Below, one piece after another: positions 1,610 to 24,794 of a DNA stretch of 30,377 nt. Every line of letters begins with the position of its first letter. Within the stretch, counting starts at the first letter, position 1. The notes under the pieces were generated by a model, which was not told the origin of the DNA, made no database searches, and saw nothing but the letters and a program-made list of their open reading frames with translations. The stretch is from a virus. Its lineage: Duplodnaviria > Heunggongvirae > Uroviricota > Caudoviricetes. The translations under genes and the position numbers were made by a program. The stretch lies in the IMG/VR virus record IMGVR_UViG_2654587686_000023, one strand, 5' to 3'.

Positions 1610-2824
1610 GTGAAACTCAATGCCCGTCAAATAGACACAGCCAAGCCAAAAGAGAAGGCTTACAAGCTGACCGATGGTGGCGGTTTGTATCTCTTGGTAA
1701 AACCTAATGGAGGTAAATACTGGCGACTTAAATATCGTGTAGCTGGTAAAGAGAAGCTATTGGCACTAGGTGTGTATCCTGAGGTTACTCTAGCCGATGC
1801 TCGGGCAAAACGTGAAGATGCGAAAAGAGGTATCGCTGGTGGTATCGATCCGATGGAAGCGAAACGAGAGGAAAAGATTGCCCGGGAAACGCAGTTAAAC
1901 AACACCTTCAAAGATATTGCCCTTGAGTGGCACAGCAGCAAATTAAAAAAATGGTCTGATGGTTATGCTTCAGACATCCTCGAAGCCTTCAACAAAGATG
2001 TGTTCCCTTACATTGGCAAAAAACCCATCGCCGAAATCAAACCACTTGAACTTCTGAATGTGCTGCGTCGCATCGAGGGGCGCGGTGCTACAGAAAAAGC
2101 CAAAAAAGTGAGGCAACGGTGCGGGGAAGTTTTCCGCTATGCAATAGTCACTGGTCGCGCAGAGTATAACCCTGCACCAGACCTTACTAGCGCGATGCAA
2201 GGCCATGAATCTAATCATTACCCTTTCCTTACAGCCAAAGAATTACCTGATTTTTTCAAGGCATTGTCCAGTTACTCAGGAAGCGCATTGGTTGTTATGG
2301 CGGCTCGTCTACTGATTATCACCGGCTTGCGGACTGGCGAACTACGTGGCGCATTATGGGATGAAATTGATTTCAACAAGGCTATCTGGGAGATACCCGC
2401 TTCACGTATGAAAATGCGGCGGCCTCATATTGTGCCATTGTCTGAGCAGGCTCTTTCGCTTATTGGGAAGATTAGAGAAATAACAGGCAATTACCCTCTT
2501 ATGTTTCCCGGGCGCAATGATCCAAGGAAAACAATGAGCGAGGCCAGCATAAACCAAGTGTTTAAGCGCATTGGCTACGCTGGACGTGTAACTGGTCATG
2601 GGTTCCGGCACACTATGAGTACGATTTTGCATGAGCAGGGCTATAACACCGCGTGGATAGAAACGCAGCTCGCTCACGTTGATAAGAACTCAATTCGTGG
2701 CACATACAACCATGCGCAATATCTGGATGGAAGGCGGGAGATGCTTCAATGGTATGCCGACTATATGGATTCTCTCGAGCATGGCGGAAATGTGGTGCAT
2801 ATGGTGTTTGAAAAACACGCATGA
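1610..2824 (+). CDS. int: P4-family tyrosine integrase (GTG start)
   Basis: 404-aa ORF adjacent to the tRNA; N-terminal arm-binding-like region (KLTDGGGLYLLVKPNGGKYWRLKYR) and C-terminal catalytic region with HGFRHT and RGTYNHAQY motifs typical of P4-like integrases; GGAGG 9 nt upstream of GTG. Confidence 0.9.
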   Translation: MKLNARQIDTAKPKEKAYKLTDGGGLYLLVKPNGGKYWRLKYRVAGKEKLLALGVYPEVTLADARAKREDAKRGIAGGIDPMEAKREEKIARETQLNNTFKDIALEWHSSKLKKWSDGYASDILEAFNKDVFPYIGKKPIAEIKPLELLNVLRRIEGRGATEKAKKVRQRCGEVFRYAIVTGRAEYNPAPDLTSAMQGHESNHYPFLTAKELPDFFKALSSYSGSALVVMAARLLIITGLRTGELRGALWDEIDFNKAIWEIPASRMKMRRPHIVPLSEQALSLIGKIREITGNYPLMFPGRNDPRKTMSEASINQVFKRIGYAGRVTGHGFRHTMSTILHEQGYNTAWIETQLAHVDKNSIRGTYNHAQYLDGRREMLQWYADYMDSLEHGGNVVHMVFEKHA

Positions 2825-3215
2825 AACAACTGGACAAGTATACAGAGGTTTACTAAAGTATAGGGGAGTAGATTGATAAAAACTCACAGAGGATTGCTAT
2901 TTAACAGTTAGCCCTGGAGAAGGGCAATCGCTCTTTTATAAACGAAGGTGTATTGAGCCTTCTACGTCGCTGACAAAGCGGAATGTTCTTTAAAACTACT
3001 GGATGTCACGCCTAATAGCGTGATCCTGCCGAAATGCAGGGTAGCTCTACCCTTGTGGAGCAAACAAACCAAAACAATCTGACTATCTTTTATAAAAGAC
3101 CGCAATATGTTTTTCATATTGTGGTCTTTGGCGTATTCGACATTTGACGCAAATAAAACTCTCGCCATTCGTTGCAGGAGGGGGTTATTGCGTCATTAGT
3201 ACAGGATATTAATAA

Positions 3216-3419
3216 ATGGCTAATTACAATTCATTAATTCGTCTCTCTGAAGTTCAAAGGCGAACTGGTTATAGCAAAGCATGGATTTATCGTCTTATTA
3301 GTCAGGGGAGGTTCCCTAAACAGGTAAAAATTGGAAGTCGGGCAATTGCTTTTGTTGAGTCTGAAATAGATGAATGGATTGAGAAGTGTATATTAGAATC
3401 TAGAGACGAGGTGGCCTGA
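3216..3419 (+). CDS. alpA: AlpA-family phage transcriptional regulator (small HTH, excisionase-like)
   Basis: 67-aa ORF, sequence pattern LIRLSEVQRRTGYSKAWIYRLISQGRFPKQVKIG characteristic of the AlpA/prophage regulatory protein family; position right after int as usual in P4-like islands. Confidence 0.8.
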   Translation: MANYNSLIRLSEVQRRTGYSKAWIYRLISQGRFPKQVKIGSRAIAFVESEIDEWIEKCILESRDEVA

Positions 3420-3850
3420 TGGAAAAGAAAAACCGCCCATTACAGGCGGCTAATTCAGATATTCGTGTATCTGATGTTACGCCCCTTACAAAATCCCTTC
3501 AAGCACCAAAGCGTACACCGAAAAAGCATCGTGCCAGAGTCTATATGCTGCGTACTGGTATAGAGGGATGGACAGAAAATGACATTCTTCGCTACTGCCG
3601 TCTGTCTTCTGGTCGTAACTATGCAACAGAGTTAGAACGCCAGCTTGGAATCACTCTGGAGCGTATCGACGAAAAGAATCCTGATGGTATCGGAACACAC
3701 CTTCGCTACCGTTTCTCCTGCCGTGGTGATGTTCTGAAAGTGATCACTCATATTAACCATCTTGCGAACATAAATGATCACAACGGACTTTCTCAGCAGG
3801 AAATTGCCGACATTCTGAAACTCTACCCGGACGCGTTTAACGCCGCCTAA
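3419..3850 (+). CDS. hypothetical protein (143 aa), basic N-terminus
   Basis: ORF overlapping alpA stop (ATG within TGATGG), SD-like GAGGTGG upstream; no family recognised. Confidence 0.6.
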   Translation: MEKKNRPLQAANSDIRVSDVTPLTKSLQAPKRTPKKHRARVYMLRTGIEGWTENDILRYCRLSSGRNYATELERQLGITLERIDEKNPDGIGTHLRYRFSCRGDVLKVITHINHLANINDHNGLSQQEIADILKLYPDAFNAA

Positions 3851-3862: not shown

Positions 3863-4696
3863 ATGAACATCGAAAAAAGCAGATTAATTTCTGAGGCTGC
3901 CCCTCATCTGAACGCCTCTCTGGGCACAATTAACGGTAATGAATTTGCCGCAATTGTCCCGGTTATTCCTGGTCATATCGGTGGGCGTGAAACCAATATT
4001 GTTAGCGCAAAAGCGTTACACAAAGCGTTGGGCGTGGGAAAAGACTTCTCTACATGGATCACTGATCGCATCTCTGAATATGACTTCACCATTGGGCACG
4101 ATTACTCAGTCCATAAAACAATTTCCCCAAATTTGGGGAAAAGCCCGAATGGCGCGGCTTACAGCAAGATTAAGCAGTCTGGCAGACCCGGCAAAGACTA
4201 TCTGTTAAGTGTCGGAATGGCGAAAGAACTGGCAATGATCGAACGCAATGATCAGGGTCGCGCTATCCGTCGTTATTTCATCCAGTGCGAGGAAGAATTA
4301 CAGCGTAGCGTGCCTGAAATCGCCGCCCGCTATCGTCGCCAGCTAAAAGCCCGTATTAGTGCCGCAAACAACTTTAAGCCAATGTGCGATGCGCTGAATA
4401 TGGCCCGTGCCGAGCAGGGGAAAACGACGCAGCAACACCACTACACAAACGAGAGCAATATGATTTCTCGTATCGTTCTTGGTGGGCTAACTGCTAAGCA
4501 GTGGGCGCGGATAAATGGCTATTCTGGCGAACCTCGCGACCATATGAACGCAGAACAGCTTGAGCACCTCTCATATCTCGAAAGCACCAATATCACGTTA
4601 ATTGATATGGGCATGGAATATGAGCAGCGCAAAGGAGAACTCACCCGCCTGTCGCAACGCTGGCTCGCCAAGCGTCTGGAGGCGGTCCATGTTTAA
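3863..4696 (+). CDS. phage antirepressor-like protein (AntA/KilAC-type domain)
   Basis: 277-aa ORF with GGAG SD; N-terminal and central regions resemble antirepressor/KilAC domain proteins of prophages; call from recalled family features. Confidence 0.65.
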   Translation: MNIEKSRLISEAAPHLNASLGTINGNEFAAIVPVIPGHIGGRETNIVSAKALHKALGVGKDFSTWITDRISEYDFTIGHDYSVHKTISPNLGKSPNGAAYSKIKQSGRPGKDYLLSVGMAKELAMIERNDQGRAIRRYFIQCEEELQRSVPEIAARYRRQLKARISAANNFKPMCDALNMARAEQGKTTQQHHYTNESNMISRIVLGGLTAKQWARINGYSGEPRDHMNAEQLEHLSYLESTNITLIDMGMEYEQRKGELTRLSQRWLAKRLEAVHV

Positions 4697-4871
4697 GCCG
4701 ACAGGAACACCACAACCCCAAAAACGCTACAAAGATGCCCACGGAGCACTCGTTACTGTCGAAAGCGTGTCTCACAACCGAGTGACGTTTTATCGCGACG
4801 GGTATCAATCGCCATGCGTACAACTGCTGGCGCGCTTCATGAAGGAGTTCGCGGAGGTTAACAAATGCTAA
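4689..4871 (+). CDS. small hypothetical protein (~60 aa), start overlapping upstream stop
   Basis: In-frame ATG at 4689 inside ORF 4602..4871, overlapping the stop of the antirepressor gene (translational coupling pattern). Confidence 0.4.
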   Translation: MFKPTGTPQPQKRYKDAHGALVTVESVSHNRVTFYRDGYQSPCVQLLARFMKEFAEVNKC

Positions 4872-5302
4872 CCGTCCAGAAGAAGATATTTTCACTGGCT
4901 GGTATGTCGCCAAAATCCAGCAATATGACAGCAAAGTCTGGCATTAATACAGCATATACAAGCAAAGTTTATCATTTTCTGGTGGTAGGAGCGGATGCCT
5001 TAACTATGTCAGAAATTACGGTCGATGGTGTTAGCGTTGAGAAGGTCGGCGGCTGCGCCAGAGAATTTCTGGTCGTAGATGGCTTTCTCTGCTCGCGTAG
5101 TGACTCCACAAAAACCTTCGTCCACACGCGCGACGTTAACGAAATGAGCGCGATGTATTGTGCATCTGGTGCTTCCAATAGTGAGTTTTCGGAGTCCATA
5201 AAAAAGAGCTTGCCGTTATGCGGCAACACGGTTTATGGTTATAAGGCACCTCATAAAACGGGTGCCGGGATTGGCGTCCTGAAAATTCTGAAGGCGACAT
5301 AT

Positions 5303-5324
5303 GACGCGCCGAGCGTCTTTTTTT
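5303..5324 (+). terminator. Rho-independent terminator (GACGC-GCCGA-GCGTC followed by T7)
   Basis: Perfect 5-bp stem with 5-nt loop followed by seven T residues. Confidence 0.6.
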
Positions 5325-5362
5325 ATGTCGTAGGTCTGACTCACCCATTTTTTGGGCGTTGG

Positions 5363-5370
5363 TGTATAAT
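5363..5370 (+). promoter_or_regulatory. Extended -10 promoter element TGTATAAT
   Basis: TGnTATAAT match ~160 nt upstream of the 5527 gene, just downstream of the terminator; the leader contains a UUCG-tetraloop hairpin (5408-5421) and an 8-bp stem hairpin (5463-5496). Confidence 0.45.
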
Positions 5371-5526
5371 CCAGCGCCTTTGTCAATCAATGGTGGCTCA
5401 GGCGGGGGCTTCTTCGGAAGCGCCGGTATCCTTCAGAGCCGGTTACGCCAACCCTGTCTGGGCTACCACCAGCGAAATTGGCGTTTCCGGTGGTAGCGTA
5501 ACCTGCTATCTGAAGGAGGCTGCCAC

Positions 5527-5721
5527 ATGCTGGCTACTACCCCTACCCAAAAACCGCAATTTATCTGGATTATCGCCGCAGTTCGCCGCGATTGCCCGAC
5601 AATTACCGCCAAAATTCATCATATTGCTGCCGAGTCTGAACGCGATGCTCGCCGTTCTCTGGTGCGCGATCACGTCTGCTTTTTTGCTGGTCGTATCCGC
5701 ATGGAGGTGGCACATGATTAA
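5527..5721 (+). CDS. small hypothetical protein (64 aa); possibly Icd-like small prophage protein
   Basis: ORF with strong SD (AAGGAGG) upstream; Icd-like assignment is only a weak recollection. Confidence 0.55.
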   Translation: MLATTPTQKPQFIWIIAAVRRDCPTITAKIHHIAAESERDARRSLVRDHVCFFAGRIRMEVAHD

Positions 5722-5932
5722 AACCTACGATGTGCATATGGATCCCCTCGAACGCACAAGCCAGATCATCACACTGACAGAAGTGATTAACGACATTCTG
5801 GTGAGCAACTCTCCCTCACGAGACGAAAGACTGAAGGCGTTACTCGCGATATTGGATCTCGCCGTTCGTGACGTTCATTTCCTGCTGGAAGGTGGCGAAA
5901 TGCCAGGAAAAACGGGGGCAACCAATGAATAA
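5714..5932 (+). CDS. small hypothetical protein (72 aa)
   Basis: ATG at 5714 preceded by GGAGGTGG; overlaps the previous gene by 8 nt; this is the credible 3' part of the long 4865..5932 track ORF. Confidence 0.55.
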   Translation: MIKTYDVHMDPLERTSQIITLTEVINDILVSNSPSRDERLKALLAILDLAVRDVHFLLEGGEMPGKTGATNE

Positions 5933-6119
5933 CTCAATTAATGCCCCTCGACTTACGTCCGCACTTCAATTAATCGAGCAAGCAGCGGCTGTCCTGGTTG
6001 CTGTCAGTCTTTCGGCTGAAGAAATGGACGCTGCTGATGTCGTGGATGCGATTAAAGCGTGCTCATCTTTGGTTAACGATGCCCGTGCAGAGCTGGTAAT
6101 TCTTGGGGGTGAAAAATGA
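5925..6119 (+). CDS. small hypothetical protein (64 aa)
   Basis: Internal ATG of ORF 5868..6119 overlapping the upstream stop; typical P4-like small-gene string. Confidence 0.5.
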   Translation: MNNSINAPRLTSALQLIEQAAAVLVAVSLSAEEMDAADVVDAIKACSSLVNDARAELVILGGEK

Positions 6120-6379
6120 ATATCAACTTAATTTATCGTCATCCGTGTGAGCTGGAAATTGAATCATTGCTGGGGCGTGAAGAGCCATATCCAGACACAT
6201 TCACTCCCGCAGATTGCGCGACTGAACGGCTTACCAGAGCGCGCACAGGTCTGGTTCATGTGATGAATGAGATTATTCCCTCGGTGGGAGGGGAACAGGC
6301 GACAGTAATCAATAGCTGGCTACAAAAAGTTACCTCCCTGATAGATATCAGTTTAATCGATGTGGAGAGTGCGAAATGA
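6116..6379 (+). CDS. hypothetical protein (87 aa)
   Basis: ORF with start overlapping upstream stop (ATGA), SD-like GGGGGTGA upstream. Confidence 0.55.
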   Translation: MNINLIYRHPCELEIESLLGREEPYPDTFTPADCATERLTRARTGLVHVMNEIIPSVGGEQATVINSWLQKVTSLIDISLIDVESAK

Positions 6380-7544: not shown

Positions 7545-7908
7545 AAATGCAGAAATGGCGCTTAGCTCCGCAATCGGAGAGCAGGTGGCAAAGATTGCTG
7601 GTGCTGTGTGGATTCATAACCTTCATTCTACTGGTGAAGAGAAAATGGCAATTCAGACGCCAGAGGGACGCACCATTACTACATCTCTGAAGCCGTCAGA
7701 TGTTTGTGATCTGATTTGCGCATTCATGTACCCAGCAATGAGGACTGTCCACGGCGATAAGTGGAAACTTGCGACAACCGCTGAATTTGATATGTGGCTA
7801 AACAATGATGGCATGCTGACTGATTACGGAATAACCAAGTGGCAGATGCTGGTTAGCCATATCGCAAACGCTATAGACCACGTGGGGTACGGTGATGCGA
7901 AACATTGA
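7537..7908 (+). CDS. hypothetical protein (123 aa)
   Basis: ORF with GGAGG SD, overlapping neighbours at both ends. Confidence 0.55.
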   Translation: MRENAEMALSSAIGEQVAKIAGAVWIHNLHSTGEEKMAIQTPEGRTITTSLKPSDVCDLICAFMYPAMRTVHGDKWKLATTAEFDMWLNNDGMLTDYGITKWQMLVSHIANAIDHVGYGDAKH

Positions 7909-10651
7909 TCTTATCCGTCAGGTTATCAGTGCGTCTGAAAACAACTGGCCTCATGTGCTGGGCTGCCTGAACATAAATGTCCCTGACTCTCCGCGCCGTC
8001 ATGCTCCCTGCCCTGCATGTGGGGGCAAAGATCGATTCCGGTTCGATGACAACGGGCGCGGTAGCTTCATCTGTAATCAGTGCGGCGCTGGTGATGGGCT
8101 GGATTTAATTAAACGCGTAAATAACTGCGACACAACAGAGGCGGCGCTTCTTGCCGCTGATGTTCTGGGTATTGATTACCGGACAACGGAAACACCAGAA
8201 GCCACCAGCCAGAAACGGGAACAACTGGAAACCGAGCGCCAGCGACGCGAACAGGAGCGCCTGAAAAGGGCAGAGAAGGACGAACAACAAAGACGGGATA
8301 CGTTTTCCCGTCAGTTTGATGACATGCGCAGAAAGGCTGTAAACGGCAAATCTGATTATCTGGTTGCGAAAGGGGTAGGTGATTTTACATTCCCCGTGTT
8401 GCCCGATGGATCTCTGTTGCTGGCGCTGGTGGATAAATCCGGCGCAGTCACAGCAGCACAGACTATTACCTCACATGGTGAAAAAAGACTCCTGACAGGT
8501 TCAGCAAAGCGGGGGGCATATCACGCCATAAACGCACCAGAAACAACACAGAGCATCTTAATCGCAGAAGGGCTGGCAACGGCATTATCTGCCCATTTAA
8601 TTCGTCCAGAGGCGCTGACAGTGGCGGCGATTGATGCCGGGAACCTGTTATATGTCGCCCAGGTACTGCGGGATAAATATCCATCAGCACAAATCATCAT
8701 TGCTGCGGATAACGACCACAGCGAAGGAAGACAAAACACGGGGAGAATAGCAGCAGAAAAAGCAGCTTTATCTGTTTCTGGATGGGTGGCATTACCCCCG
8801 ACAGATCACAAAGCAGACTGGAATGATTACCACCAAAAACACGGCATTAAATGCGCCACAGAAGCGTTCAATAAGTCAATGTACCAACCACAGGGTAATG
8901 GCGTGAAACAGGAGCCACAGACCATTGAGGGAAGCGATTTTAAGGTTATGGATACCGACCCACTGAAACCAAGAATAGAAAGCCGCGAGGATGGTATTTA
9001 TTGGGTATCTCCGAGAGCTGACAGCCAGAGTGGAGAAATCATCAATAACGAAAGCTGGTTATGTTCTCCGTTAAGCGTTATCGGTACTGGCAGAGACGAT
9101 AAAGACCAGTATCTCATTCTTCGCTGGCTGTCGTTTGGTTCTGAAACGCCGACAACCGCTGCCATTCCACTGGCTGATATTGGTGAACGTGAAGGATGGC
9201 GCACACTTAAAGCTGGTGGGGTAAATGTCACGACCAAAAGCAGCCTCAGAGCAATACTGGCAGACTGGCTACAACGCAGTGGCTCTCGTGAATTGTGGCG
9301 TGTTGCTCATGCCACTGGCTGGCAATGCGGAGCGTACATCATGCCTGATGGGGAAATCATCGGAACACCTGAAAATCCTGTGCTGTTCAGCGGGAGAAGC
9401 TCAGCCGCAGCCGGATATACCGTCTCAGGGAGCGCGAAAAGCTGGCGTGATAACGTGGCGCGTCTGGCCTTTGGTAACTATTCAATGATGACCGGGATCG
9501 GCGCAGCACTGGCAGCGCCATTGATTGGGCTGGTGGGCGCTGACGGGTTCGGCATTCATTTCTATGAGCAGTCGAGCGCAGGTAAGACCACCACGGCAAA
9601 CGTGGCGAGCAGCTTATACGGCAACCCTGATTTACTGCGGCTGACGTGGTACGGAACCGCGCTGGGGCTGGCAAATGAAGCCGCCGCCCACAATGACGGA
9701 CTAATGCCGCTTGATGAAGTTGGTCAGGGCGCTGATCCTGTCAGTGTTTCACAGTCTGCCTATGCGTTATTTAACGGTGTAGGGAAACTGCAAGGCGCTA
9801 AAGATGGTGGAAACCGGGATCTAAAACGCTGGCGTACAGTGGCAATCAGCACTGGAGAAATGGATTTAGAAACATTTATCGCTACTTCCGGGCGAAAAAC
9901 CAAAGCCGGGCAACTGGTGCGACTGCTGAATATTCCGTTGAGTAAAGCAGTACGCTTTCACGATTACCAGAACGGAAAACAGCACGCAGACGCACTGAAA
10001 GACGCTTACCAGCATCACCACGGCGCAGCCGGGCGTGAGTGGATTAAATGGCTGGCAGACCACCAGCAACAGGCAATTAAAACTGTTCGTGACTGCGAAA
10101 GCAGATGGAGAAGTCTGATCCCATCCGATTATGGTGAGCAGGTTCACCGTGTAGCCGCGCGATTTGCCATTCTGGAGGCCGCATTGCTGTTAGGCGAGGT
10201 TGTAACAGGCTGGGATGCTCAGACATGCCGTGATGCGATACAGCACAGCTATAACGCATGGTTGCGCGAGTTCGGCACAGGTAACAAAGAACATCAGCAG
10301 ATTATTGAACAAACGGAGGCATTTCTTAATGCCTATGGGCTTAGCCGTTTTGCACCATTTCCATACAGCCCGGCAGATTTGCCCATCAAAGATTTGGCCG
10401 GATACCGTCAGCGTGGAGAACATGACGAAAGCCCAATGATTTTCTACACATTCCCGGCCACATTTGAAAAGGAGATCGCATGTGGTTTCAACGCAAAACA
10501 GTTTGCTGAAGTGTTGAAAAAAGCCGGGATGCTAACCCCACCAAACAGCGGTCGTGGATACCAAAGAAAATCACCACGTATTCAGGGACGACAAATAAAC
10601 GTTTATGTACTCAATTACCAGCCAGGAGATTATAACTCATCTGAAGAATGA
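7892..10651 (+). CDS. P4 alpha-like primase-helicase (zinc-binding primase domain + TOPRIM-like region + D5/DUF927-type NTPase)
   Basis: 919-aa ORF; N-terminal CPACGG...CNQCG zinc-ribbon typical of P4 alpha/bacteriophage primases; Walker A-like SSAGKTT in the C-terminal half; size and position typical for P4-like islands. Confidence 0.85.
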   Translation: MMRNIDLIRQVISASENNWPHVLGCLNINVPDSPRRHAPCPACGGKDRFRFDDNGRGSFICNQCGAGDGLDLIKRVNNCDTTEAALLAADVLGIDYRTTETPEATSQKREQLETERQRREQERLKRAEKDEQQRRDTFSRQFDDMRRKAVNGKSDYLVAKGVGDFTFPVLPDGSLLLALVDKSGAVTAAQTITSHGEKRLLTGSAKRGAYHAINAPETTQSILIAEGLATALSAHLIRPEALTVAAIDAGNLLYVAQVLRDKYPSAQIIIAADNDHSEGRQNTGRIAAEKAALSVSGWVALPPTDHKADWNDYHQKHGIKCATEAFNKSMYQPQGNGVKQEPQTIEGSDFKVMDTDPLKPRIESREDGIYWVSPRADSQSGEIINNESWLCSPLSVIGTGRDDKDQYLILRWLSFGSETPTTAAIPLADIGEREGWRTLKAGGVNVTTKSSLRAILADWLQRSGSRELWRVAHATGWQCGAYIMPDGEIIGTPENPVLFSGRSSAAAGYTVSGSAKSWRDNVARLAFGNYSMMTGIGAALAAPLIGLVGADGFGIHFYEQSSAGKTTTANVASSLYGNPDLLRLTWYGTALGLANEAAAHNDGLMPLDEVGQGADPVSVSQSAYALFNGVGKLQGAKDGGNRDLKRWRTVAISTGEMDLETFIATSGRKTKAGQLVRLLNIPLSKAVRFHDYQNGKQHADALKDAYQHHHGAAGREWIKWLADHQQQAIKTVRDCESRWRSLIPSDYGEQVHRVAARFAILEAALLLGEVVTGWDAQTCRDAIQHSYNAWLREFGTGNKEHQQIIEQTEAFLNAYGLSRFAPFPYSPADLPIKDLAGYRQRGEHDESPMIFYTFPATFEKEIACGFNAKQFAEVLKKAGMLTPPNSGRGYQRKSPRIQGRQINVYVLNYQPGDYNSSEE

Positions 10652-10670: not shown

Positions 10671-10798
10671 AAAGGTGTTGGTTCAGTTGGTTCAGTTGGT
10701 TCAGTTGGTTCAATTTGTAAAGAGTATTGTTTTATAAGGATTTTATTCTTTTTATTGAACCAACACTGAACCAACAACACGGTATTTTGAACCAACAC
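10671..10798. repeat. Iteron cluster A: four tandem GGTTCAGTT units (10680-10715) followed by three inverted TGAACCAACA copies (10756-10798); candidate alpha-binding crr/ori-type site
   Basis: Directly visible tandem and inverted repeats immediately 3' of the primase gene; by analogy with P4 alpha binding short iterons in ori and crr (established for P4, inferred here). Confidence 0.6.
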
Positions 10799-11117
10799 AA
10801 TGTGACTGAATTGATGCGCACAACACCTGGCTGGCATCAGAGAGTGTTTTACGAGACTTTCGTAAAATCCTGTGTACAAGGGCGTGACGTTTTTGAAAGT
10901 GAGCACTACGAAATTTTCGTAGTTCAAAAAACAGCCTCTGAGAAGTTGTTATGCCTGTTCAGCAAACCATCCGCATAGCTGATCGCGAATCAAATTACCA
11001 ATGGAGCCAGAAGCAAGGGCAGAACTGAAAAGTGCCTGCCGTGAAGAGTAATGCGACACCATAAATATAGTTTTTAGAGTCCATAAAAAACCAGTCAAAA
11101 CCTGACACACAGAACGA

Positions 11118-11422: not shown

Positions 11423-11884
11423 ATGGAACTAAAATTTATTGATAACCCTGTGCGATTACAGGCCTTTCTTAACGATCCTGGCAATACCGAAAATATTGTT
11501 GAGCCGGGGCACACGTACTACATCAAGCCTGATGCGGTATATCTCGGCATCTACGAAGGATTGGTGCTGGCTGGCGTTCATGAAGTGCGTAACTTCTGGC
11601 ATAGCGTTGTTGAATGCCATGCGGTGTATGACCCCGGATTCCGTGGTGAATATGCACTGCAAGGGCATCGACTATTCTGCAAATGGCTTCTCGAAAACTC
11701 ACCATTCCTTAACAGCATCACTATGGTTCCTGACACCACGAAATACGGACGGGCAATTATCCGTTTGCTTGGCGCTACCCGTGTTGGTCACCTTGATGAT
11801 GCTTATATCAGATGTGGTAAACCCGTCGGCGTAACGCTTTATCAGTTAACTCGGCAACAATATAAGGAATTCAGCGAATGTTAA
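11423..11884 (+). CDS. hypothetical protein (153 aa), first gene of a coupled 4-gene operon
   Basis: ORF; stop overlaps the next start. No family recognised. Confidence 0.6.
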   Translation: MELKFIDNPVRLQAFLNDPGNTENIVEPGHTYYIKPDAVYLGIYEGLVLAGVHEVRNFWHSVVECHAVYDPGFRGEYALQGHRLFCKWLLENSPFLNSITMVPDTTKYGRAIIRLLGATRVGHLDDAYIRCGKPVGVTLYQLTRQQYKEFSEC

Positions 11885-12555
11885 TTACCCATATAGCTCA
11901 TAAACATCTCAATCGTGCCGTATACGAAAAAGGCGGTGATGGTGGTGCCTCTAAAGCTCAGGCGAAGGCCCAGCAGCAGGCAATTGATTTGCAGCGCGAG
12001 CAGTGGAATACGGTGATGAATAATCTCAAGCCGTATGCAGAAGTCGGATTGCCTGCTTTACAACAACTACAAGGACTGATGACTCTGGAAGGGCAGAATA
12101 AAGCCGCGAATGATTTCTTTGGTTCTGGTTTATATAAAACACAGGCAGATCAGGCCCGTTATCAGAACCTTGTCTCAGCAGAAGCTACCGGGGGGCTTGG
12201 CTCAACAGCTACCAGTAACCAGTTATCTTCCATTGCGCCCATGCTTTATAACAATTGGCTTAGTGGGCAAATGCAAAATTATGGAAACCTGCTAAATGTC
12301 GGGATGAATGCGGCATCAGGGCAGGCAACGGCAGGGCAAAACTACGCCAATAATACCGGACAACTCTTGCAGGGGCTTGGCGCTATTCGTGCAGGTCAGG
12401 CGCAGCAGCCATCCAGTCTTGCGCGTGGTATTGGTGGGGCAGCATCAGGCGCTTTAGCGGGTGCGCAACTTGGTTCCGTTGTTCCTGGAATAGGTACTGC
12501 GGCAGGCGCTATTGGTGGTGGGCTTATTGGTCTTGTTGGGGGGCTTGGATTCTAA
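11878..12555 (+). CDS. hypothetical protein (225 aa) with Gly/Ala-rich glycine-zipper-like C-terminus; phage ejection/internal-protein-like
   Basis: ORF with low-complexity C-terminal GxxxG-rich hydrophobic segment (GIGGAASGALAGAQLG...GGLIGLVGGLGF); start overlaps upstream stop. Confidence 0.6.
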   Translation: MLITHIAHKHLNRAVYEKGGDGGASKAQAKAQQQAIDLQREQWNTVMNNLKPYAEVGLPALQQLQGLMTLEGQNKAANDFFGSGLYKTQADQARYQNLVSAEATGGLGSTATSNQLSSIAPMLYNNWLSGQMQNYGNLLNVGMNAASGQATAGQNYANNTGQLLQGLGAIRAGQAQQPSSLARGIGGAASGALAGAQLGSVVPGIGTAAGAIGGGLIGLVGGLGF

Positions 12556-13874
12556 TGGCGACATGGCAACTTGGCGGGCTGCCTAGCATGGCACCGCAAA
12601 ATGATAATGCTCCTCGTTCTTCCGTTCCTCAGCCTGTGCAGTATCAGCAGCAGCCAAACGTAGGTTTAATGGCGCTACAGGGGCTAAGAGGCGTTGCTGA
12701 GATTAATCAGCAGGCGCAAATTTCCCAGCAGCTAAAAGAATATCAGGCACAGTTGGGTAGTGCGGTAGCTAATAATGATCGTGTTGGCGTGCAGAAGTTA
12801 ATGGCCCAGTATCCCCAGTTTATGGCTGATTCTCAAAAACAGATGGGATTCATTGATGCTGAGCAAAATCGGCAGACCGCTGACGCTGCCATGAATCTGC
12901 GTCTTGCGTCACAAACTGGAGATCCACTGACCATGCAGAAGGCCATTCAGCAGGCAAATCCAGTATTACAGCGATTTGGTCTTCCTGCTGAAGAGGTTTA
13001 TCAGTCTTGGCAGAATGACCCACAGGAATTCAACAGAATCACTGACCTCATCCACCTCCATGCTGATCCAAATAGTTACTTTAGTGTTCAAGAGAAGCAG
13101 CAAGGGCAGAGTATTGCACAGCAGAACGCAGATACATCTGCATATAATGCTCAGGTTAATGCGGAACAGGGTAATCGGCGTCTCGATATGGAGCAGTTCA
13201 AAGTCCTATCCGATAACCAGCTACGCACGAGAGAAATGGTTCTGAAAGCACGACTTGGACGTGCTCAAAATGACATCGAGAGAGACAAGCTCAATGCTGA
13301 ACTGAGCAAGGTACAGCAGGCGAAAGTGGAGAAGATGAACGATAAAATTAATACTGTTGCAGGTAACATCGACTCCTTGAACTCTGCGCTTGAAGTGGGT
13401 CATGAACTGGCGGGAATTGTAGGGAAACATCCTTCGGCCGTTACCCGTTCGCAGAACTATAACCCCCTGACGCTGGGGTTTGGATTCCTTCCTGATGTAG
13501 CAGAAGACACACGAAGCCTACGCGCCAAAGCTGATGAATACAACCTAAAGGTTATTCTGCCTAGCCTCAAAGGGACTTTTGGCTCTAACCCAACCGAAGG
13601 GGAAAGGGCTGCCCTTATGCAATCTCAAAATGGCATTAAGTCAGCAACCAGCAATGAGGCATTTTTGCGAGAGTTGAATAAAGCGCAGGACGTAATTATT
13701 CGAATGCAGAAACGACAGATTGCCGGGCTCGGTATTCCTGTAACCAAATCTAAGGACGAAGAAACTGATACTAAAATGCTGTTGCAGGATCCTTCTCTGG
13801 TTAAGGATTATGTGACCGCACATGGCTATCTGCCGGAAAGTTACTATCAGGCAAAACTTAAGGGATGGCAATGA
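12555..13874 (+). CDS. hypothetical Gln-rich, probably coiled-coil protein (439 aa); phage ejection/internal-protein-like
   Basis: ORF whose ATG overlaps the previous stop (TAATGG); Q-rich heptad-like sequence. Confidence 0.6.
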   Translation: MATWQLGGLPSMAPQNDNAPRSSVPQPVQYQQQPNVGLMALQGLRGVAEINQQAQISQQLKEYQAQLGSAVANNDRVGVQKLMAQYPQFMADSQKQMGFIDAEQNRQTADAAMNLRLASQTGDPLTMQKAIQQANPVLQRFGLPAEEVYQSWQNDPQEFNRITDLIHLHADPNSYFSVQEKQQGQSIAQQNADTSAYNAQVNAEQGNRRLDMEQFKVLSDNQLRTREMVLKARLGRAQNDIERDKLNAELSKVQQAKVEKMNDKINTVAGNIDSLNSALEVGHELAGIVGKHPSAVTRSQNYNPLTLGFGFLPDVAEDTRSLRAKADEYNLKVILPSLKGTFGSNPTEGERAALMQSQNGIKSATSNEAFLRELNKAQDVIIRMQKRQIAGLGIPVTKSKDEETDTKMLLQDPSLVKDYVTAHGYLPESYYQAKLKGWQ

Positions 13875-16591
13875 TGGCACAACTGACAGAAAAACAGAAA
13901 GCCTATTCCCGTCATCTCGATGAAAAATATGGTTTCCCATCAGGGACGATGGAAACATTAGTTGGCAATGAATCTAGTGGTAACGGAAGTGCCGAGTCAC
14001 CGAAAGGAGCTAGAGGATTTGCTCAACTGATGCCCTCAGTAATGAGTGATGCTGGTTATCGTGGAACAGATCCGCGCTCACTGCCATTTGAAAAGCAAAT
14101 GGATATCGCAGCAAACCATCTCAATAAAGGAATGAAGCGATTTGGTGATATAGGTATGGCATTGGCTGGGTATAATTCTGGCTATGCTCGTATTAATGCC
14201 GTAAGAAACGGTAAATCTACACTGCCAGATGAAACGGCTAATTACGTAAGTAAATTTGCAGATGCCGGAATAATCCCTGATGACAGTGAAATCTTGCAGT
14301 TTGCACAAACCAGTCAACATCGCAATCTTCAGCAGCCTGACTACTCAGAGCTTGATAAAGAAATCTCTCAGGTGGGAGATATTTCTGCATGGGAAGCAAA
14401 ACGTCAGCAATTTAAGAACATAGAAGCAGGACTACCAACAGCCAGTTCATGGGAGCAGAAAAGAGCTCATTTTCTCGCCGATGAAAATGCCGGGGAACCG
14501 CAGCAGCAAGTAGCCAAGTCTAACCTTAATCCTGAGATGGAATATCTTTCGCCAGGACTGAAAGCTGCGCCAGAGCAGATGGCCAGAGGGATTGCTAATA
14601 TACCGTTTGATGTAATGGACGCAGGCGTGGGGGTAGTCAATGCGGCGCAATCAGCCGGAGCATGGGCAGCTCAGAAGCTTGGTGTGGGTGATGGTACATA
14701 CACGCCCATATCACCTGTCTTTCGCCCAGTAGACCAACCTACAGATCCATACGCGCAGGCTGGTGAGCAGCTAGCACCTTACCTTATTACAGGATTAGGT
14801 GCAGGAAAGGCAGCTACCGCAGCTTCTTCAGTTGCCAACGCTCCACGTGCTGAACGTGCGGCCACAAAGGTGGCTAGTATGTTGGCAGAAAACCTGCCAG
14901 GTACATTGGTGAACGCCCAAAAGAACGGGCAGATCAGCCCAGAAGACCTAGCAAAAGAGACAGGTATTGGCCTAGCAGGATCGCTAGGAGCACGCGCTTT
15001 AATAAAGAGCGGACAGACAGCCAGTGACGTAATGCGAGATGTATTGCGGAGTAATACAAATCAATCAAGCTATGTGTTAGGGGCAGCAAATACTCTGGAA
15101 ACCGCCAATGATGTATCGAAAGCAGCGCGTTCTGCCGTAGGCCGAGAGCATATCGCATCGCAGGCATCAAACGTCAGAGATGATGTCGCTAAGGCGGCGA
15201 AAATCACTGGTATTAATATCAACACCCTGACGCCTGGAATGCGCTCAGGTAGTCGTGGAATTGCCCAAGCAGAAGGTGTTCTGGCATCAACTCCTGGGAA
15301 TGTTCAGGATGCTCACCTTACGGCCTTCAATGAAATATCCTCAAAGTTGAATAAGCAGTTGTCTGATTTCGGTGCTGAGTCTGGAAGCGCATCAGAAAAA
15401 AGCGCAGCAATTAAAGAGCGCATCATCGCGAGCCTCAGTGATATGAAAACAGCAGAGAATATGGCATGGGCAGAACTGCGAAGCACGATGCCACGCGAAA
15501 GGATGAAAATGAGTAATGGGATGGCTGTCGTCCAAGCAGAAAAAGCAGCCAATGTTCCACTCAGCCCGGAGATGAAACAGTTTCAGGCTGCCAATAACCA
15601 AGGTGGCGGCATAACCTTCGACGGGATGAAGGCATGGCGTGCTAAGTTTGCTGATGCTGAACAAGCAAACACCCGGGCAGGTAAGGCCAATGCCGCCCGG
15701 GTTGCCGGAGAAATGCGCAGAGCTATCACTGATGACATGCGCATCATGGCTGAAAAAGGAAACTTCCTCACAGAATGGCAGAAAGCTAACGATCTCTCTA
15801 AAAGTTACATTATCGCCAAACAAAATGCCGAATCTGTTTTTGGTCGAGATCTCGCATCAGACGCTATGGTAAGAAAAGGTGCCGATACGCTTAAGGCATC
15901 CGCAAACACTGGAACGGGAGCTTTTCACCGTCTTATCTCCGCGCTGCCGGAAGCAGAACGCCAACCAGCAATAGCATCTATTCTTCAGCATGCTGTGGCG
16001 CAGGGAGAGAAGGGAGGAATCGGTGAAGAGTCTGGTATCCAGTATTTTGCCAAGCTCATGACCCAGCAGAATGTAAACGCCATCAGTCGTCATGCGCCAG
16101 ATCTCGGTAGAATGATGAAAGAGTTCGGTGTACTCGCTAAAGCCAGCACCAGACCGCAGCGATACGTAGAGCGCACGGGAAGAACAACTGAGGCTCTCAA
16201 AACGCTCGATTCAGGCCTTCCAAAGATCGTCGGCGTGATTATGAACGGAGTTCAACAGTCAGGTGCGATCGCTGGAGGCTTTGGCGGTGGTGTAATTGGT
16301 TCGATTAGTGGTTTGGTTGCTGGTGGCGCGCTGAGAAATACTGTGGCTAAGATTGGGGCGACAAGAAGTGGTCGATATGCGATAGAGAAAGCCGTTCAGG
16401 AAGCTACAAAAGCAGTGCGCGCAGGGGCATCACCAGCAGCGATCGCCGCAGCAGAGAAACGATTTTCGGCCAATAAAATTGCCATGAAAGCAATTCGTGA
16501 TGCCGTTGGGGCTGAAGAATTCGTGAAACTGACAAGGGCCGGGATTGTAGCTACCCTCAGTGGCATGAAAGATGTTAGCGAATGGGAATAG
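13865..16591 (+). CDS. large protein (908 aa) with N-terminal lytic transglycosylase (SLT) motif; phage internal-virion/ejection-protein-like
   Basis: N-terminal ES...GARGFAQLMPS...AGYNSGY pattern matches the catalytic Glu-Ser and G-L-M-Q/AYN-G signatures of family-1 lytic transglycosylases; rest is Ala-rich low complexity; start overlaps upstream stop. Confidence 0.7.
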   Translation: MAMMAQLTEKQKAYSRHLDEKYGFPSGTMETLVGNESSGNGSAESPKGARGFAQLMPSVMSDAGYRGTDPRSLPFEKQMDIAANHLNKGMKRFGDIGMALAGYNSGYARINAVRNGKSTLPDETANYVSKFADAGIIPDDSEILQFAQTSQHRNLQQPDYSELDKEISQVGDISAWEAKRQQFKNIEAGLPTASSWEQKRAHFLADENAGEPQQQVAKSNLNPEMEYLSPGLKAAPEQMARGIANIPFDVMDAGVGVVNAAQSAGAWAAQKLGVGDGTYTPISPVFRPVDQPTDPYAQAGEQLAPYLITGLGAGKAATAASSVANAPRAERAATKVASMLAENLPGTLVNAQKNGQISPEDLAKETGIGLAGSLGARALIKSGQTASDVMRDVLRSNTNQSSYVLGAANTLETANDVSKAARSAVGREHIASQASNVRDDVAKAAKITGININTLTPGMRSGSRGIAQAEGVLASTPGNVQDAHLTAFNEISSKLNKQLSDFGAESGSASEKSAAIKERIIASLSDMKTAENMAWAELRSTMPRERMKMSNGMAVVQAEKAANVPLSPEMKQFQAANNQGGGITFDGMKAWRAKFADAEQANTRAGKANAARVAGEMRRAITDDMRIMAEKGNFLTEWQKANDLSKSYIIAKQNAESVFGRDLASDAMVRKGADTLKASANTGTGAFHRLISALPEAERQPAIASILQHAVAQGEKGGIGEESGIQYFAKLMTQQNVNAISRHAPDLGRMMKEFGVLAKASTRPQRYVERTGRTTEALKTLDSGLPKIVGVIMNGVQQSGAIAGGFGGGVIGSISGLVAGGALRNTVAKIGATRSGRYAIEKAVQEATKAVRAGASPAAIAAAEKRFSANKIAMKAIRDAVGAEEFVKLTRAGIVATLSGMKDVSEWE

Positions 16592-22219: not shown

Positions 22220-22242
22220 TATGGGGGTACTTTTGGGGGTAT
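22220..22242. repeat. ATGGGGGTACTTTTGGGGGTATC, right-end copy of the GGGGGTA arm-type motif
   Basis: Near-identical to 1557-1580. Confidence 0.55.
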
Positions 22243-22303: not shown

Positions 22304-22322
22304 TCCTATTATCGGCACCATT
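22304..22322. repeat. attR core: second copy of TCCTATTATCGGCACCATT
   Basis: Exact 19-bp repeat of the thrW 3' end (1428-1446). Confidence 0.85.
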
Positions 22323-22925
22323 AAGAAAATCAATAACTTAGCTTAACTTCTCTAAGAAATTGTATCTTCTGTTATCACTTACAAACGCCTATACGTTGTT
22401 ATGGGCTTTGGTAGTGTAACACGTATGGGCGAGTAGTTCCCAGGCTCAACCTCGTAACAAGTTCCTTTGAAGCTGGAAGACGTGCCACCGTCTCTAAACC
22501 TTCTACCAAAACTCTTAGCAAGATGTTCCACACCTGGCGCGGTGTCCAATGATGCCACACGTCGTGAGACGTTGCAGAGGATAAACAGGCTAAATGATGG
22601 GAAGAGTTTTAAGTGCAATAGTGGATTAAAGCCCACCTCTTCAAAACCTAACTTGATCGGGAAAGAATCAAGCTCTAGCACGGTTTCGTCCACCGGAGTA
22701 CAACGGGTGCCTGATAAGAGAAGAACTGCTAAGACTTCATAGCTTTTGTGAAAAAGCCCTTTTTAGTGGATACGCCTACGGCGCTTATTTTTTGGTATAA
22801 CCATCAAAGGCGCTTTATGGCTCCTATTGTCTTGAAAATGTATCTTTACTTGTATTGTGTTTTATGCGTAGTCTCCCTGTGTAGTATGTAACTTGTTAAT
22901 TTTCATATGAATACAGAGGCACACG

Positions 22926-23084
22926 ATGAAAAACATTGCAGCTATAAAACGTAATAACCGCAAGATTCACGCTCGTAAGTTCCTGTCTACGCCAGAAGGA
23001 AAAGCCTGGTTAGAGCGTAAACAGAGAGAGAACGAAGAAAGAAAACTCCTTAGTGAGTTGAAATGGCTTAGAGAGGATTTCTGA
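22926..23084 (+). CDS. small basic hypothetical protein (52 aa)
   Basis: Short ORF below track cutoff with GAGG 7 nt upstream of ATG; Lys/Arg-rich. Confidence 0.3.
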   Translation: MKNIAAIKRNNRKIHARKFLSTPEGKAWLERKQRENEERKLLSELKWLREDF

Positions 23085-23380
23085 AAATCTCCAGAACGCA
23101 ACAGGACGCATTCTAACGCTGTTTTCATTGCTTGGTATAGGGATGTATAGGTGATGTGTGTTTAATGCGTCTGTGAGCTTGTTTTGTGCCTTATTTTGCA
23201 TTTTCATAATGCAGAAGAGAACACGGAAAGCCTTAAAATTAATTATTGGGGTATTTAAGGCTATTTTTAGGGTATTTAAGGGTATTAAACTTGATTTAAT
23301 TGATTAAAATATAAACAGATAGTTCTGTATCTTATTGATTTATAAGGTTATTTTTAAATAAAGATAAATAAAAAATAAAT

Positions 23381-23430: not shown

Positions 23431-23525
23431 CCCCTCCCTTATGGCTAGATTGCGAGAGGTGCTTAACGCGATTTTCAGCGCCCCCCGATCTGGAAAATCC
23501 AGAATCCCCAAATATCAAGGAGGCA

Positions 23526-24784: not shown

Positions 24785-24794
24785 GAACTACAAT

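Follow-up and report, generated by a model that had tools for sequence, protein, structure and literature searches.

The immunity region of phage P4 is composed of the PLE promoter, seqA, the cI/CI RNA, seqC, the nested eta/kil genes and the Rho-dependent timm. In both P4 and P1, transcripts that start at the promoter upstream of IsrK/seqA and read through are the source from which the C4/CI RNA is processed. In P4-like prophages, IsrK and C4 were described as structural homologues of P4 seqA and CI (PMC3632133, PMC4825925), and in Gifsy-1 the C4-equivalent RNA was found to come from read-through of the isrK promoter (PMC4825925). According to PMC10111431, termination in P4 is controlled by the translation of eta/kil (citing Forti 1999), eta is translated across the RNA genes, and this translation prevents termination.

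The window analyzed here is a stretch of viral DNA of 30,377 nt. Judged from sequence homology, its segment 5210-5526 is very probably (about 85%) the RNA-based immunity, or lysogeny-maintenance, region of a satellite prophage of about 20.9 kb, and it is homologous to the seqA-cI-seqC region of P4 and the immI a1b1-c4-a2b2 region of P1. An antisense-RNA immunity switch of the P4/P1 type is of an already known kind, and the finding is real but ordinary. The shared order of promoter, IsrK, C4, target sites, Shine-Dalgarno sequence (SD) and kil/icd-like gene was also observed in P4, a P1-like phage, SfV and 49 enterobacterial loci. The initial annotation, made from the letters alone, had suggested small regulatory RNAs of the P4/P1 immunity type. 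This was borne out by homology, the C4 scan of Rfam that it proposed was positive, and all five features that it described exist in the sequence where it placed them, at a level well above what chance would give. Its arrangement of terminator, new promoter and leader was not supported, the conserved promoter being located at 5210-5239, upstream of IsrK. It had also missed this promoter, both hairpins at the 5' end of IsrK, and the 17-bp basal stem and second hairpin of C4. The elements of the RNA part of the locus are as follows.

5210-5239, plus strand: PLE/P51b-like predicted sigma-70 promoter (-35 TTGCCG 5210-5215, 18-nt spacer, -10 TATGGT 5234-5239)
5246-5323, plus strand: IsrK / P4 seqA-like RNA (Rfam RF01394), with two 5' hairpins, a1, b1 and an intrinsic terminator at 5303-5323
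5271-5277, plus strand: target site a1, TTGGCGT, in the loop of IsrK hairpin 2
5287-5294, plus strand: target site b1, TCTGAAGG, in the IsrK-like RNA, complementary to C4
5354-5379, plus strand: conserved spacer hairpin (arm GGGCGTTGG 5354-5362, loop TGTATAAT 5363-5370, arm CCAGCGCCT 5371-5379)
5386-5473, plus strand: C4 / P4 CI-like antisense RNA (Rfam RF01695, full length)
5391-5407 with 5452-5468, plus strand: basal stem of C4, 17 bp
5408-5421, plus strand: C4 hairpin P2 with UUCG loop (GCTTC-TTCG-GAAGC)
5422-5443, plus strand: C4 hairpin P3, whose loop carries b' TCCTTCAGA (5429-5437)
5445-5451, plus strand: C4 junction segment a', ACGCCAA
5463-5496, plus strand: seqC hairpin with 8-bp stem (CTACCACC 5463-5470 paired with GGTGGTAG 5489-5496), whose loop displays a2
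5478-5484, plus strand: target site a2, TTGGCGT, complementary to a' of C4
5509-5517, plus strand: target site b2, TCTGAAGGA, overlapping the SD AGGAGG (5514-5519) of the kil/icd-like gene

The isrK and C4 matches in Rfam were both full length and on the same strand, the C4 match beginning 62 nt past the end of the IsrK match. The isrK model (RF01394) was matched with 67.8 bits against a gathering score of 50 (E 1e-12, model positions 1-77 of 77), and the C4 model (RF01695) with 79.9 bits against a gathering score of 45 (E 2.3e-14, model positions 1-87 of 87). The succession of an isrK and then a C4 match to Rfam was found again in P4 and SfV, and also in the P1-like phage RCS47, where the pair sits between pacB and ant. 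The intrinsic terminator noted initially at 5303-5324 (GACGC-GCCGA-GCGTC and a T-run), which was also called by the terminator scan, is the terminator of the IsrK-like RNA, with its stem at 5303-5317 followed by the T-run. The c4-a1b1 motif RF03163 reached 19.1 bits at 5233-5285, below its gathering score of 46.7, and P4 was likewise sub-threshold for this model (44.1 bits); the a1 and b1 sites are present, but the isrK model describes them better than RF03163. The promoter upstream of IsrK was aligned with the annotated P4 -10 TATAGT and TTGCCT at the same 18-nt spacing, and the pattern TTGC(C/G)N...TAT(A/G)NT was kept upstream of IsrK in nearly all of the 49 loci. Its predicted start is at about 5246, and the TATGGT ends 7 nt ahead of position 1 of the isrK match. 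At 11069-11090, 22 nt of the sequence upstream of the promoter are repeated; this was treated as chance, no similar promoter being found after the repeat.

The fold and the pairing sites of C4 were then compared across related loci. The GCTTC-UUCG-GAAGC hairpin at 5408-5421, first taken as part of a structured leader, was identified as the first inner hairpin of C4 (P2). The 27 pairs of the C4 fold were paired at 99.4% in 45 distinct loci and 14 of them were changed on both sides, while slid controls were only 33-48% paired. A CCA-like 3' tail at 5469-5471 follows the basal stem, which is compatible with C4-type release by RNase P of a mature RNA of about 77-79 nt. The 8-bp stem hairpin at 5463-5496, which had also been picked out from the letters, has been preserved by compensatory changes among related loci: in the 45 distinct loci, 97% of cells were paired, five of the eight pairs were changed on both sides, and its score was reached by none of 500 shuffles. 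Six bases of its CTACCACC arm also belong to the 3' arm of the basal stem of C4, so that the seqC and C4 helices are mutually exclusive. A small third hairpin at 5494-5508 was only 69% paired in the alignment.

The b' segment is exactly complementary to b1 over 8 nt and to b2 over 9 contiguous nt, and a' is exactly complementary to a1 and a2 over 7 nt each. Both triplets, a'/a1/a2 with six types and b'/b1/b2 with at least nine, co-varied across the 49 loci, and the a and b sites were internally cognate in nearly every one of them. Two E. coli relatives carried a different, internally consistent cassette within near-identical flanks. The placement of a2 at GCGTAACC (5496-5503) was rejected, the four-way alignment and the 49-locus table putting it at 5478-5484. 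RNAduplex energies between the entire C4 and IsrK did not discriminate, as an unfolded GC-rich C4 pairs with anything and 97 of 500 shuffles performed equally well; pairing was judged by exact complementarity and co-variation instead.

Between the terminator and C4, the initial annotation had placed an extended -10 element at 5363-5370. The TGTATAAT is present there, with the hexamer TATAAT at 5365-5370; its TG lies at -14/-13 and not at -15/-14 as in TGnTATAAT, directly abutting the hexamer in GGTGTATAAT, which is not the spacing of an extended -10. No -35 was found for this hexamer within a spacer of 16-18 nt, and the promoter scan made no call there. The TGTATAAT is the loop of the conserved spacer hairpin, whose stem was formed in each of the 17 loci whose spacer measures 139-140 nt (mean 8 bp, counted by a script since the gapless alignment mixes two loop registers). 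In these loci, several pair types were seen at each of the stem positions 3-8, numbered from the loop, and sliding the 3' arm as a control collapsed the stem length. The TATAAT occurs in 8 of the 17 loci of the same spacer class, always in the hairpin loop, and is lacking in P4, in SfV and in the P1-like and short-spacer loci.

These data bear on the possibility that the terminator at 5303-5324 ends an upstream unit and that TATAAT is an independent promoter, starting near 5377, whose leader is or contains C4 and runs into the kil operon. This possibility would be favored by a perfect -10 hexamer located between the terminator and C4, by its retention in nearly half of the same-spacer-class loci, a heteroimmune E. 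coli allele among them, and by the plausible RNase P leader that would result from a start 14 nt ahead of the basal stem of C4. It is nevertheless unlikely, given the misplaced TG, the lacking -35, the silent promoter scan and the narrow distribution of the hexamer. The stem around the hexamer covaries, which indicates selection on an RNA transcribed from upstream, while the loop is freely replaced in close relatives, such as two Leclercia loci with CTATACT and AAGCATT. As C4/CI RNA in P4, P1 and Gifsy-1 is processed from read-through of the IsrK/seqA promoter, no start near 5377 is needed for the RNA reading. Moreover, the C4-equivalent STnc1160 of Gifsy-1 was lost upon deletion of the isrK promoter (PMC4825925).

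The coding features around the RNAs are as follows.

4853-4857, plus strand: SD GGAGG, 7 nt before ATG 4865 of the long ORF
4865-5932, plus strand: long ORF of 355 aa, 'ash family protein' in PGAP, its middle part the P4 eta homologue
5527-5721, plus strand: kil/icd-like gene of 64 aa, the first translated gene after the RNAs (NCBIfam NF033153, Icd-like, E 3.7e-20)
5714-5932, plus strand: small gene of 72 aa, its start overlapping the kil stop, a separate gene in PGAP in a 99.3%-identical relative

The short genes with strong SDs proposed at 5527 and 5714 were confirmed in the sequence, AGGAGG (5514-5519) lying 7 nt before ATG 5527 and GGAGG 8 nt before ATG 5714. The coding score favored the kil frame over 5527-5721, and the kil-like product showed 44% identity to P4 Kil and 27% to Icd of the P1-like phage RCS47. 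No family match was found for the gene at 5714-5932. The 5' half of kil is C-rich and G-poor, with a GC skew down to -0.40 at 5500-5660, the lowest in 5200-6200, which is suggestive at most of timm. From 5527, co-oriented and tightly packed genes continue to the primase at 7892-10651 (Zn-ribbon, Toprim, DUF927), with iterons at 10677-10721, and the immunity region probably controls this downstream primase operon. On the other side of the RNAs, the upstream genes overlap head to tail, and an AntA-family gene is located at 3863-4696. A P22-type pac-site fragment was also observed in antisense orientation at 5013-5119, with the pac core at 5098-5119.

A working model of the switch can be drawn by analogy with P4, P1 and Gifsy-1, from which promoter activity, RNA processing, translation block, Rho termination and bypass by translation are taken. 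The constitutive promoter at 5210-5239 would start transcription at about 5246, most transcripts would end at the terminator 5303-5323 as a short IsrK/seqA-like RNA, and the read-through transcripts would carry the C4/CI-like RNA 5386-5473. As in P1 and P4, C4 would be cut out by RNase P with 3' trimming and then accumulate. Through the b' segment of its P3 loop and the a' segment of its junction, C4 may bind b2 and a2 on newly made transcripts as well as b1 and a1 within the IsrK part. Kil would then be left untranslated because b2 overlaps the SD of the kil/icd-like gene, Rho would terminate on the naked C-rich kil RNA, and the downstream operon, comprising the small genes, the TOPRIM/DUF927 primase and the origin iterons, would be held off. 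When the upstream operon (AlpA-like, AntA, DUF4222) is transcribed, ribosomes would enter the eta-like ORF at 4865, and their crossing of IsrK, C4 and seqC would prevent RNA folding, pairing and Rho loading, by which the switch would be bypassed.

Compared with P4, the locus showed the same order and spacing logic of promoter, IsrK/seqA, spacer, C4/CI, seqC, SD and kil, and the same promoter geometry (TTGCCN, 18 nt, TATNGT). The long ORF crosses the RNAs in the homologous frame with 39% amino acid identity to P4 eta, Kil is 44% identical, a primase operon follows downstream and an AlpA/Vis-like gene lies upstream. The specificity is different, b being TCTGAAGG and a being TTGGCGT here, whereas they are TTCACAGG and GTGAGAA in P4. 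In addition, the spacer is shorter than that of P4 by 45 nt, the long ORF begins 381 nt ahead of IsrK instead of about 75 nt, the upstream operon contains AntA and DUF4222 genes, and the island carries P22-type, not P2-type, helper-related sequences. The eta-kil nesting of P4 is not reproduced: the long ORF is out of frame with kil, with an SD-to-ATG spacer 1 nt shorter, and extends to the stop of the next gene.

The likeness to P1/P7 immI, an operon made up of P51b, a1 b1, c4, a2 b2, icd and ant, lies in the same RNA families, the two-site antisense logic, the b2 site at the icd ribosome-binding site and an Icd-like first gene after the RNAs. The Gifsy-1 isrK-orf45-anrP region of Salmonella is similar in an IsrK with its own promoter and leaky terminator, short and read-through isoforms, a C4-like RNA (STnc1160) from the read-through transcript, and control of the RBS of a small downstream ORF by alternative RNA structures; in Gifsy-1, however, the cargo is an antirepressor and IsrK is a trans-activator of translation. 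A strict P1-type immI, in which C4 would only repress the translation of icd and a coupled antirepressor and in which neither termination nor the long ORF would play a role, is suggested by the overlap of b2 with the SD of the Icd-like gene and by the same IsrK-C4-icd order in RCS47. It is very improbable here, as no antirepressor is found downstream of kil/icd, the AntA-family gene being upstream, and the operon leads to a primase as in P4. Moreover, the long ORF is common to this locus and P4 and missing in P1-like loci, which have no ORF across the RNAs and a spacer of 123 nt, and the Kil-like protein is closer to P4 Kil than to the Icd of RCS47.

The long ORF had been judged initially to be regulatory or non-coding DNA rather than one long protein. 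That it is not one coherent protein was supported, since its Pfam-matched middle is the DNA of the RNAs and 5525-5713 is read out of frame over the kil/icd-like gene. The choice itself proved a false one: P4 eta, its homologue, is translated across the RNA genes, and translation of the ORF here would therefore not count against the RNA reading. The ATG 4865 overlaps the stop of the DUF4222 gene (TAA 4869-4871), a layout typical of translational coupling, and the final 72 codons of the ORF are also those of the gene at 5714-5932. The frame was open across the RNAs in 25 of 26 P4-like modules, compared with about 7% expected from shuffled sequence, and module lengths of 269-326 nt preserve it. 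Among 25 related modules, the long ORF and kil were in frame in 19 and out of frame in 6, this locus included, and the same frame offset recurred in several genera. The frame kept open in relatives fits translation without protein function.

The frame shift of the long ORF relative to P4 eta-kil, the pseudogene marks given to relatives by PGAP, and the IS10 and second element adjoining the island could be taken as signs of a decayed, non-functional immunity relic in a defective island. The chance of this is slight. The promoter, terminator, C4 fold, a/b sites, SD and kil ORF are all intact and mutually cognate, and the recurrence of the frame offset in several genera also argues against decay. 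The satellite prophage, which is integrated at the E. coli tRNA-Thr(CGU)/thrW, has an intact integrase, primase and both att repeats. The module was at least 99% identical in 20 complete E. coli genomes and was present in 1376 of 5426, about a quarter.

The different parts of the long ORF showed different properties. Its first 123 aa, which include an antisense terminase-gene fragment, were matched by close relatives only (49-100% identity over the aligned part), with neither distant homologues nor a family match found. The coding signature of the 5' third was weak, with a score of 0.12 compared with 0.34 +/- 0.07 for real genes, a score which is partly trivial because any open frame beats frames with stops, the ORF being intermediate. 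GC was flat across the codon positions of this third, dN/dS was 0.37-0.52 (21-35 substitutions), and differences fell mainly at codon positions 1 and 3, a result compatible with coding as well as with non-coding DNA. The only Pfam match of the ORF was Phage_ASH (PF10554; 117.5 bits against a gathering score of 26, E 5e-34), whose model was matched over its full length by aa 124-232 (nt 5234-5560). These residues are the translation of the IsrK-C4-seqC DNA, and their conservation is probably due to the covarying RNA pairs; the Phage_ASH family thus tracks an RNA locus together with the eta-like frame superimposed on it. Residues 221-283, out of frame over kil, had a coding score of -0.21 compared with +0.27 to +0.34 for the kil frame, and PHROG 6928 matched the long ORF and Kil in two different frames. 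The end of the ORF was called differently in close relatives, with products of 68 to 216 aa, and the P4 record labels the homologous place 'put. ash gene' or 'cI gene product'. The view that the ORF codes for a real regulatory protein of the 'Ash family', as it is named by PGAP in identical genomes and by Pfam, and that the RNA-like structures are incidental, is thus hardly credible in spite of 1068 open nt, a good SD (GGAGG, 7 nt, ATG), the Phage_ASH score and matches to PHROG 'transcriptional repressor' families, as the Pfam and PHROG matches are confined to precisely the IsrK, C4 and seqC DNA (nt 5234-5560), the founding P4 'ash/cI' ORF is the CI RNA locus (PMC3632133), the covariation of RNA pairs is not explained by protein coding, and the N-terminal 123 aa, the residues over kil and the two-frame match to PHROG 6928 are as described above.

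The antisense-RNA immunity reading has consequences for annotation and for the satellite. RefSeq/PGAP labels the locus differently among E. coli genomes: in some it is an 'ash family protein' of 355 aa, and in near-identical ones either a pseudogene together with an Icd-like gene or an Icd-like pseudogene with a frameshift; none of these records annotates the two RNA genes which define the locus. More tentatively, the segment of about 660 bp might serve as a control-and-packaging hub of a satellite parasitizing P22-like (pac-type) phages, in which the kil-uncoupled eta-like ORF only carries ribosomes across the switch and the antisense pac fragment, located in the 5' third of that ORF, is captured from a helper. 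If true, the 20.9-kb island would be packaged by a P22-type terminase and silenced by a P4-type RNA immunity. The module sets the immunity specificity of the satellite, and the a/b types could be used for typing heteroimmune lineages because cassette swaps are visible between otherwise identical islands. Nothing new is added to the P4/P1 paradigm beyond one recurrent variation, namely that the read-across ORF and kil lie in different frames.

The whole window was scanned against Rfam at gathering thresholds, and two of the four matches fell in the segment where the initial annotation had listed a terminator, a promoter, a UUCG leader and strong Shine-Dalgarno (SD) sequences. One was isrK (RF01394; 67.8 bits), which includes the terminator; the other was the C4 antisense RNA (RF01695; 79.9 bits, 87/87 model positions), for which that annotation had proposed the scan. 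The terminator, the UUCG hairpin, the 8-bp hairpin and the SDs were all present in the sequence as listed, and the map below was derived from an alignment with P4, P1-like phage RCS47, lambdoid phage SfV and 49 loci, the last taken from a pattern scan in which each species was represented by one genome, together with the annotated phage records.

Features of the RNA region and downstream genes (coordinates on the given strand)
5210-5215, TTGCCG, -35 element of the predicted promoter; 18-nt geometry as in P4 PLE
5234-5239, TATGGT, -10 element of the same promoter, upstream of the IsrK-like RNA
5246-5323, isrK match
5271-5277, target site a1, hairpin loop of the IsrK-like RNA
5287-5294, target site b1, in the IsrK-like RNA
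5303-5324, terminator GACGC-GCCGA-GCGTC, then a T-run (sequence and terminator scan)
5354-5379, spacer hairpin, between the IsrK-like and C4-like RNAs
5363-5370, TGTATAAT, apical loop of the spacer hairpin
5386-5473, C4 match
5408-5421, UUCG hairpin GCTTC-TTCG-GAAGC, first inner hairpin of C4
5429-5437, b', loop of C4 hairpin P3
5445-5451, a', in the C4-like RNA
5463-5496, seqC hairpin (the 8-bp hairpin), CTACCACC (5463-5470) paired with GGTGGTAG (5489-5496)
5478-5484, target site a2, displayed by the seqC hairpin
5509-5517, target site b2, overlapping the kil SD
5514-5519, strong SD of the kil/icd-like gene
5527, ATG of the kil/icd-like gene
5714, ATG of the next small gene, preceded by a strong SD
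7892-10651, primase gene (Zn-ribbon/Toprim/DUF927), downstream of small genes and followed by iterons

Judged by sequence, the locus belongs to both RNA families, C4 and isrK, because every feature of these families that could be sought in sequence was found. When the region was compared by BLAST with phage records, phage P4 was matched, in its 1984 record as 'put. ash gene (aa 1-137)' and in later ones as 'cI gene product'. Rfam placed isrK and then C4, in the same order, in P4, RCS47 and SfV; in RCS47 the pair sits in the immI region, flanked by pacB and ant. The seqA and CI RNAs of P4 have been equated with IsrK and C4 in P4-like satellite prophages (PMC3632133; PMC4825925), and both families have been noted in Gram-negative PICI satellites (PMC10111431). 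The earlier guess of a likeness to the RNA-based immunity of P4 and P1 was therefore correct, and the relation is one of homology rather than analogy. The region is not new in kind.

Complementarity of the C4 segment b' extended over 8 nt with b1 and 9 nt with b2; for a' it was 7 nt with each of a1 and a2. Across the 49 loci at least nine b-types and six a-types were found in various combinations, with the three copies agreeing in almost every locus; this agreement is the signature of a putative antisense specificity determinant. In E. coli 2273-PO3 and Z1323CEC0005 the flanking genes were 0-2% divergent from the window and the cassette at 5270-5513 was different, with 92 of 315 positions (29%) changed in 5210-5524 and no indel. 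The a, b and stem positions changed together, giving a distinct a/b set. As a cassette with its own internally consistent set between near-identical flanks, it is a predicted heteroimmune allele, swapped by recombination.

When 45 distinct loci were aligned, the C4 fold was 99.4% paired, compared with 33-48% in slid controls, and 14 of its pairs had changed on both sides. In these loci the seqC hairpin was 97% paired, and five of its eight pairs were changed on both sides. Its 5' arm shares six bases with the 3' arm of the C4 basal stem, so the two helices are mutually exclusive, suggesting a conformational choice in the unprocessed transcript. A small hairpin between a2 and b2 (TAGC, 5494-5497, with GCTA, 5505-5508) overlaps the seqC 3' arm and was only 69% paired in the alignment of these 45 loci, although in a different register many loci have an equivalent stem.

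The spacer hairpin formed in 17/17 loci of the 139-140-nt spacer class with varied pair types, and its loop holds the sequence TGTATAAT that had been read as an extended -10 element. An independent promoter at this position is unlikely. TATAAT is kept in 8 of the 17 loci of the class and is absent elsewhere, the TG abuts the hexamer (-14/-13), a -35 element is lacking and no promoter was called there by the scan. The stem enclosing the hexamer covaries, which argues for transcription from upstream. In P1, C4 arises by processing of P51b transcripts, and in P4, CI arises in this way from PLE transcripts. The C4-equivalent RNA of Gifsy-1 needs the isrK promoter (PMC4825925). An inverted repeat, TTGCCGTTATGCGGCAA (5210-5226), overlaps the -35 element of the upstream promoter and on the minus strand is followed by a T-run and called terminator-like by the scan; this hairpin was not conserved among related loci.

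The initial annotation had doubted the 355-aa ORF at 4865-5932 and favored RNA over protein. The frame was confirmed as open, with GGAGG 7 nt 5' of its ATG, which overlaps the DUF4222 stop; that it is not one coherent protein was upheld. Its only Pfam match, Phage_ASH (aa 124-232, nt 5234-5560), covers exactly the RNA module. The first 123 aa had flat codon-position GC, contained part of a P22-type small-terminase gene in antisense, matched no family and had close relatives only. The coding score favored the kil frame over 5525-5713 (+0.27 to +0.34 versus -0.21 for the out-of-frame long ORF). ORF 5527-5721 matched the NCBIfam 'host cell division inhibitor Icd-like' (E 3.7e-20), and PHROG 6928 was matched by the long ORF and by Kil in two different frames.

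The choice between RNA and protein does not hold, and several observations indicate that the frame matters. It was open all the way between the start of IsrK and the ATG of kil in 25 of 26 distinct P4-like modules versus about 7% expected in shuffled sequence, and module lengths (269, 281, 287 and 326 nt) all differed by multiples of three. The frame in the window is homologous to the P4 eta frame (39% aa identity), which was open at 2801-3455 in phase with kil, as was SfV orf37. According to the statements in PMC10111431 that cite Forti 1999, eta, which starts 5' of PLE and has kil as its end, is translated solely on transcripts from the upstream promoter, and termination is prevented by this translation. 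The long ORF is most likely a translated read-across frame whose amino-acid sequence is of little importance. The window belongs to a minority of 6/25 modules, from several genera, in which this frame is out of phase with kil because the SD-to-ATG spacer is 1 nt shorter. The shorter spacer (column 146 of locus alignment A3) was seen in the window and related loci L092, L049, L078, L025, L029, L067 and L047, also of several genera; the long ORF stayed open 172-586 nt past the kil ATG in six shorter-spacer loci, with L092 not tabulated and L067 having no open frame.

By analogy with P4, P1 and Gifsy-1, the promoter upstream of IsrK would be active, termination at the end of the IsrK-like RNA would be leaky and the C4-like RNA would be processed by RNase P. 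Pairing of b' with b2 would block kil translation, and Rho-dependent polarity would act, in keeping with a 5' half of kil that is rich in C and poor in G. Ribosomes entering from the upstream operon would bypass the switch. The locus, in which this work found the parts, complementarities, co-variation and the conservation of the structures and the open frame, would resemble the P4 immunity region in how it works. Since the long ORF and kil lie in different frames, it is not a strict P4 eta/kil nest, and since there is no antirepressor downstream, it is not a P1 immI operon either.

At the start of the window lie proA and tRNA-Thr(CGU). An island of ~20.9 kb, roughly half the size of a P22 genome, is bounded by a direct repeat of 19 bp from the 3' end of this tRNA, TCCTATTATCGGCACCATT (1428-1446 and 22304-22322). 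Another repeat pair just inside its ends, ATGGGGGTACTT(A/T)TGGGGGTAT (1557-1578 and 22221-22242), may be an integrase arm site. The island carries an integrase and an AlpA/excisionase-like HTH gene, and an upstream operon ending in AntA and DUF4222 leads to the RNA region, the kil/icd-like gene, a series of small genes and the primase gene. This order is collinear with that of the P4 left operon (orf88/vis, immunity region, epsilon ... alpha). Immediately 3' of the primase gene, four tandem GTTGGTTCA repeats and then inverted copies (GAACCAACA), at 10677-10721 and 10758-10800, are probably the satellite's replication origin. Downstream of the primase, P22-type genes (11423-16591) encode DUF2824, gp7, gp20 (Inj_translocase) and a 908-aa SLT-domain protein, presumably gp16-like; these are phage ejection proteins on a satellite-like island. 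Within the long ORF, 5013-5119 (107 nt) shared 85-88% identity with gene 3 (small terminase) of P22-like phages, read on its antisense strand, and the similarity stops precisely on the 22-bp pac site annotated in P22. The pac equivalent (5098-5119, minus strand; GAAGGTTTTTGTGGAGTCACTA versus P22 GAAGATTTATCTGAAGTCGTTA) agreed at 16/22 positions, its 12-bp core at 11/12 with a P22-like prophage of E. coli W, and one of its positions departs from the published pseudo-pac pattern. The segment may plausibly be a packaging site that was captured and would serve a P22-like helper. Past the right att repeat, 22323-30377 is apparently a second element, with about seven 22-bp iterons (24640-24812), an HTH_36 protein (26435-27124), a major capsid protein E homologue (29228-30256) and the end of IS10, truncated where the window stops, with RNA-OUT (30330-30377).

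The 1.6-kb segment around the RNA region was found in 1376 of 5426 complete E. coli genomes, with twenty records at ≥99% identity. In genomes 91-100% identical (loci L001, L002, L090 and L092), PGAP annotated the same frame in three ways, as a 355-aa 'ash family protein', as a partial ash pseudogene with an Icd-like and a hypothetical gene, or as a frameshifted Icd-like pseudogene, and none of these four RefSeq records annotated the isrK or C4 RNA gene. The useful by-product of this work is one of annotation: the label 'ash family protein' covers two RNA genes that have no annotation, and among near-identical genomes it alternates with calls of a pseudogene.
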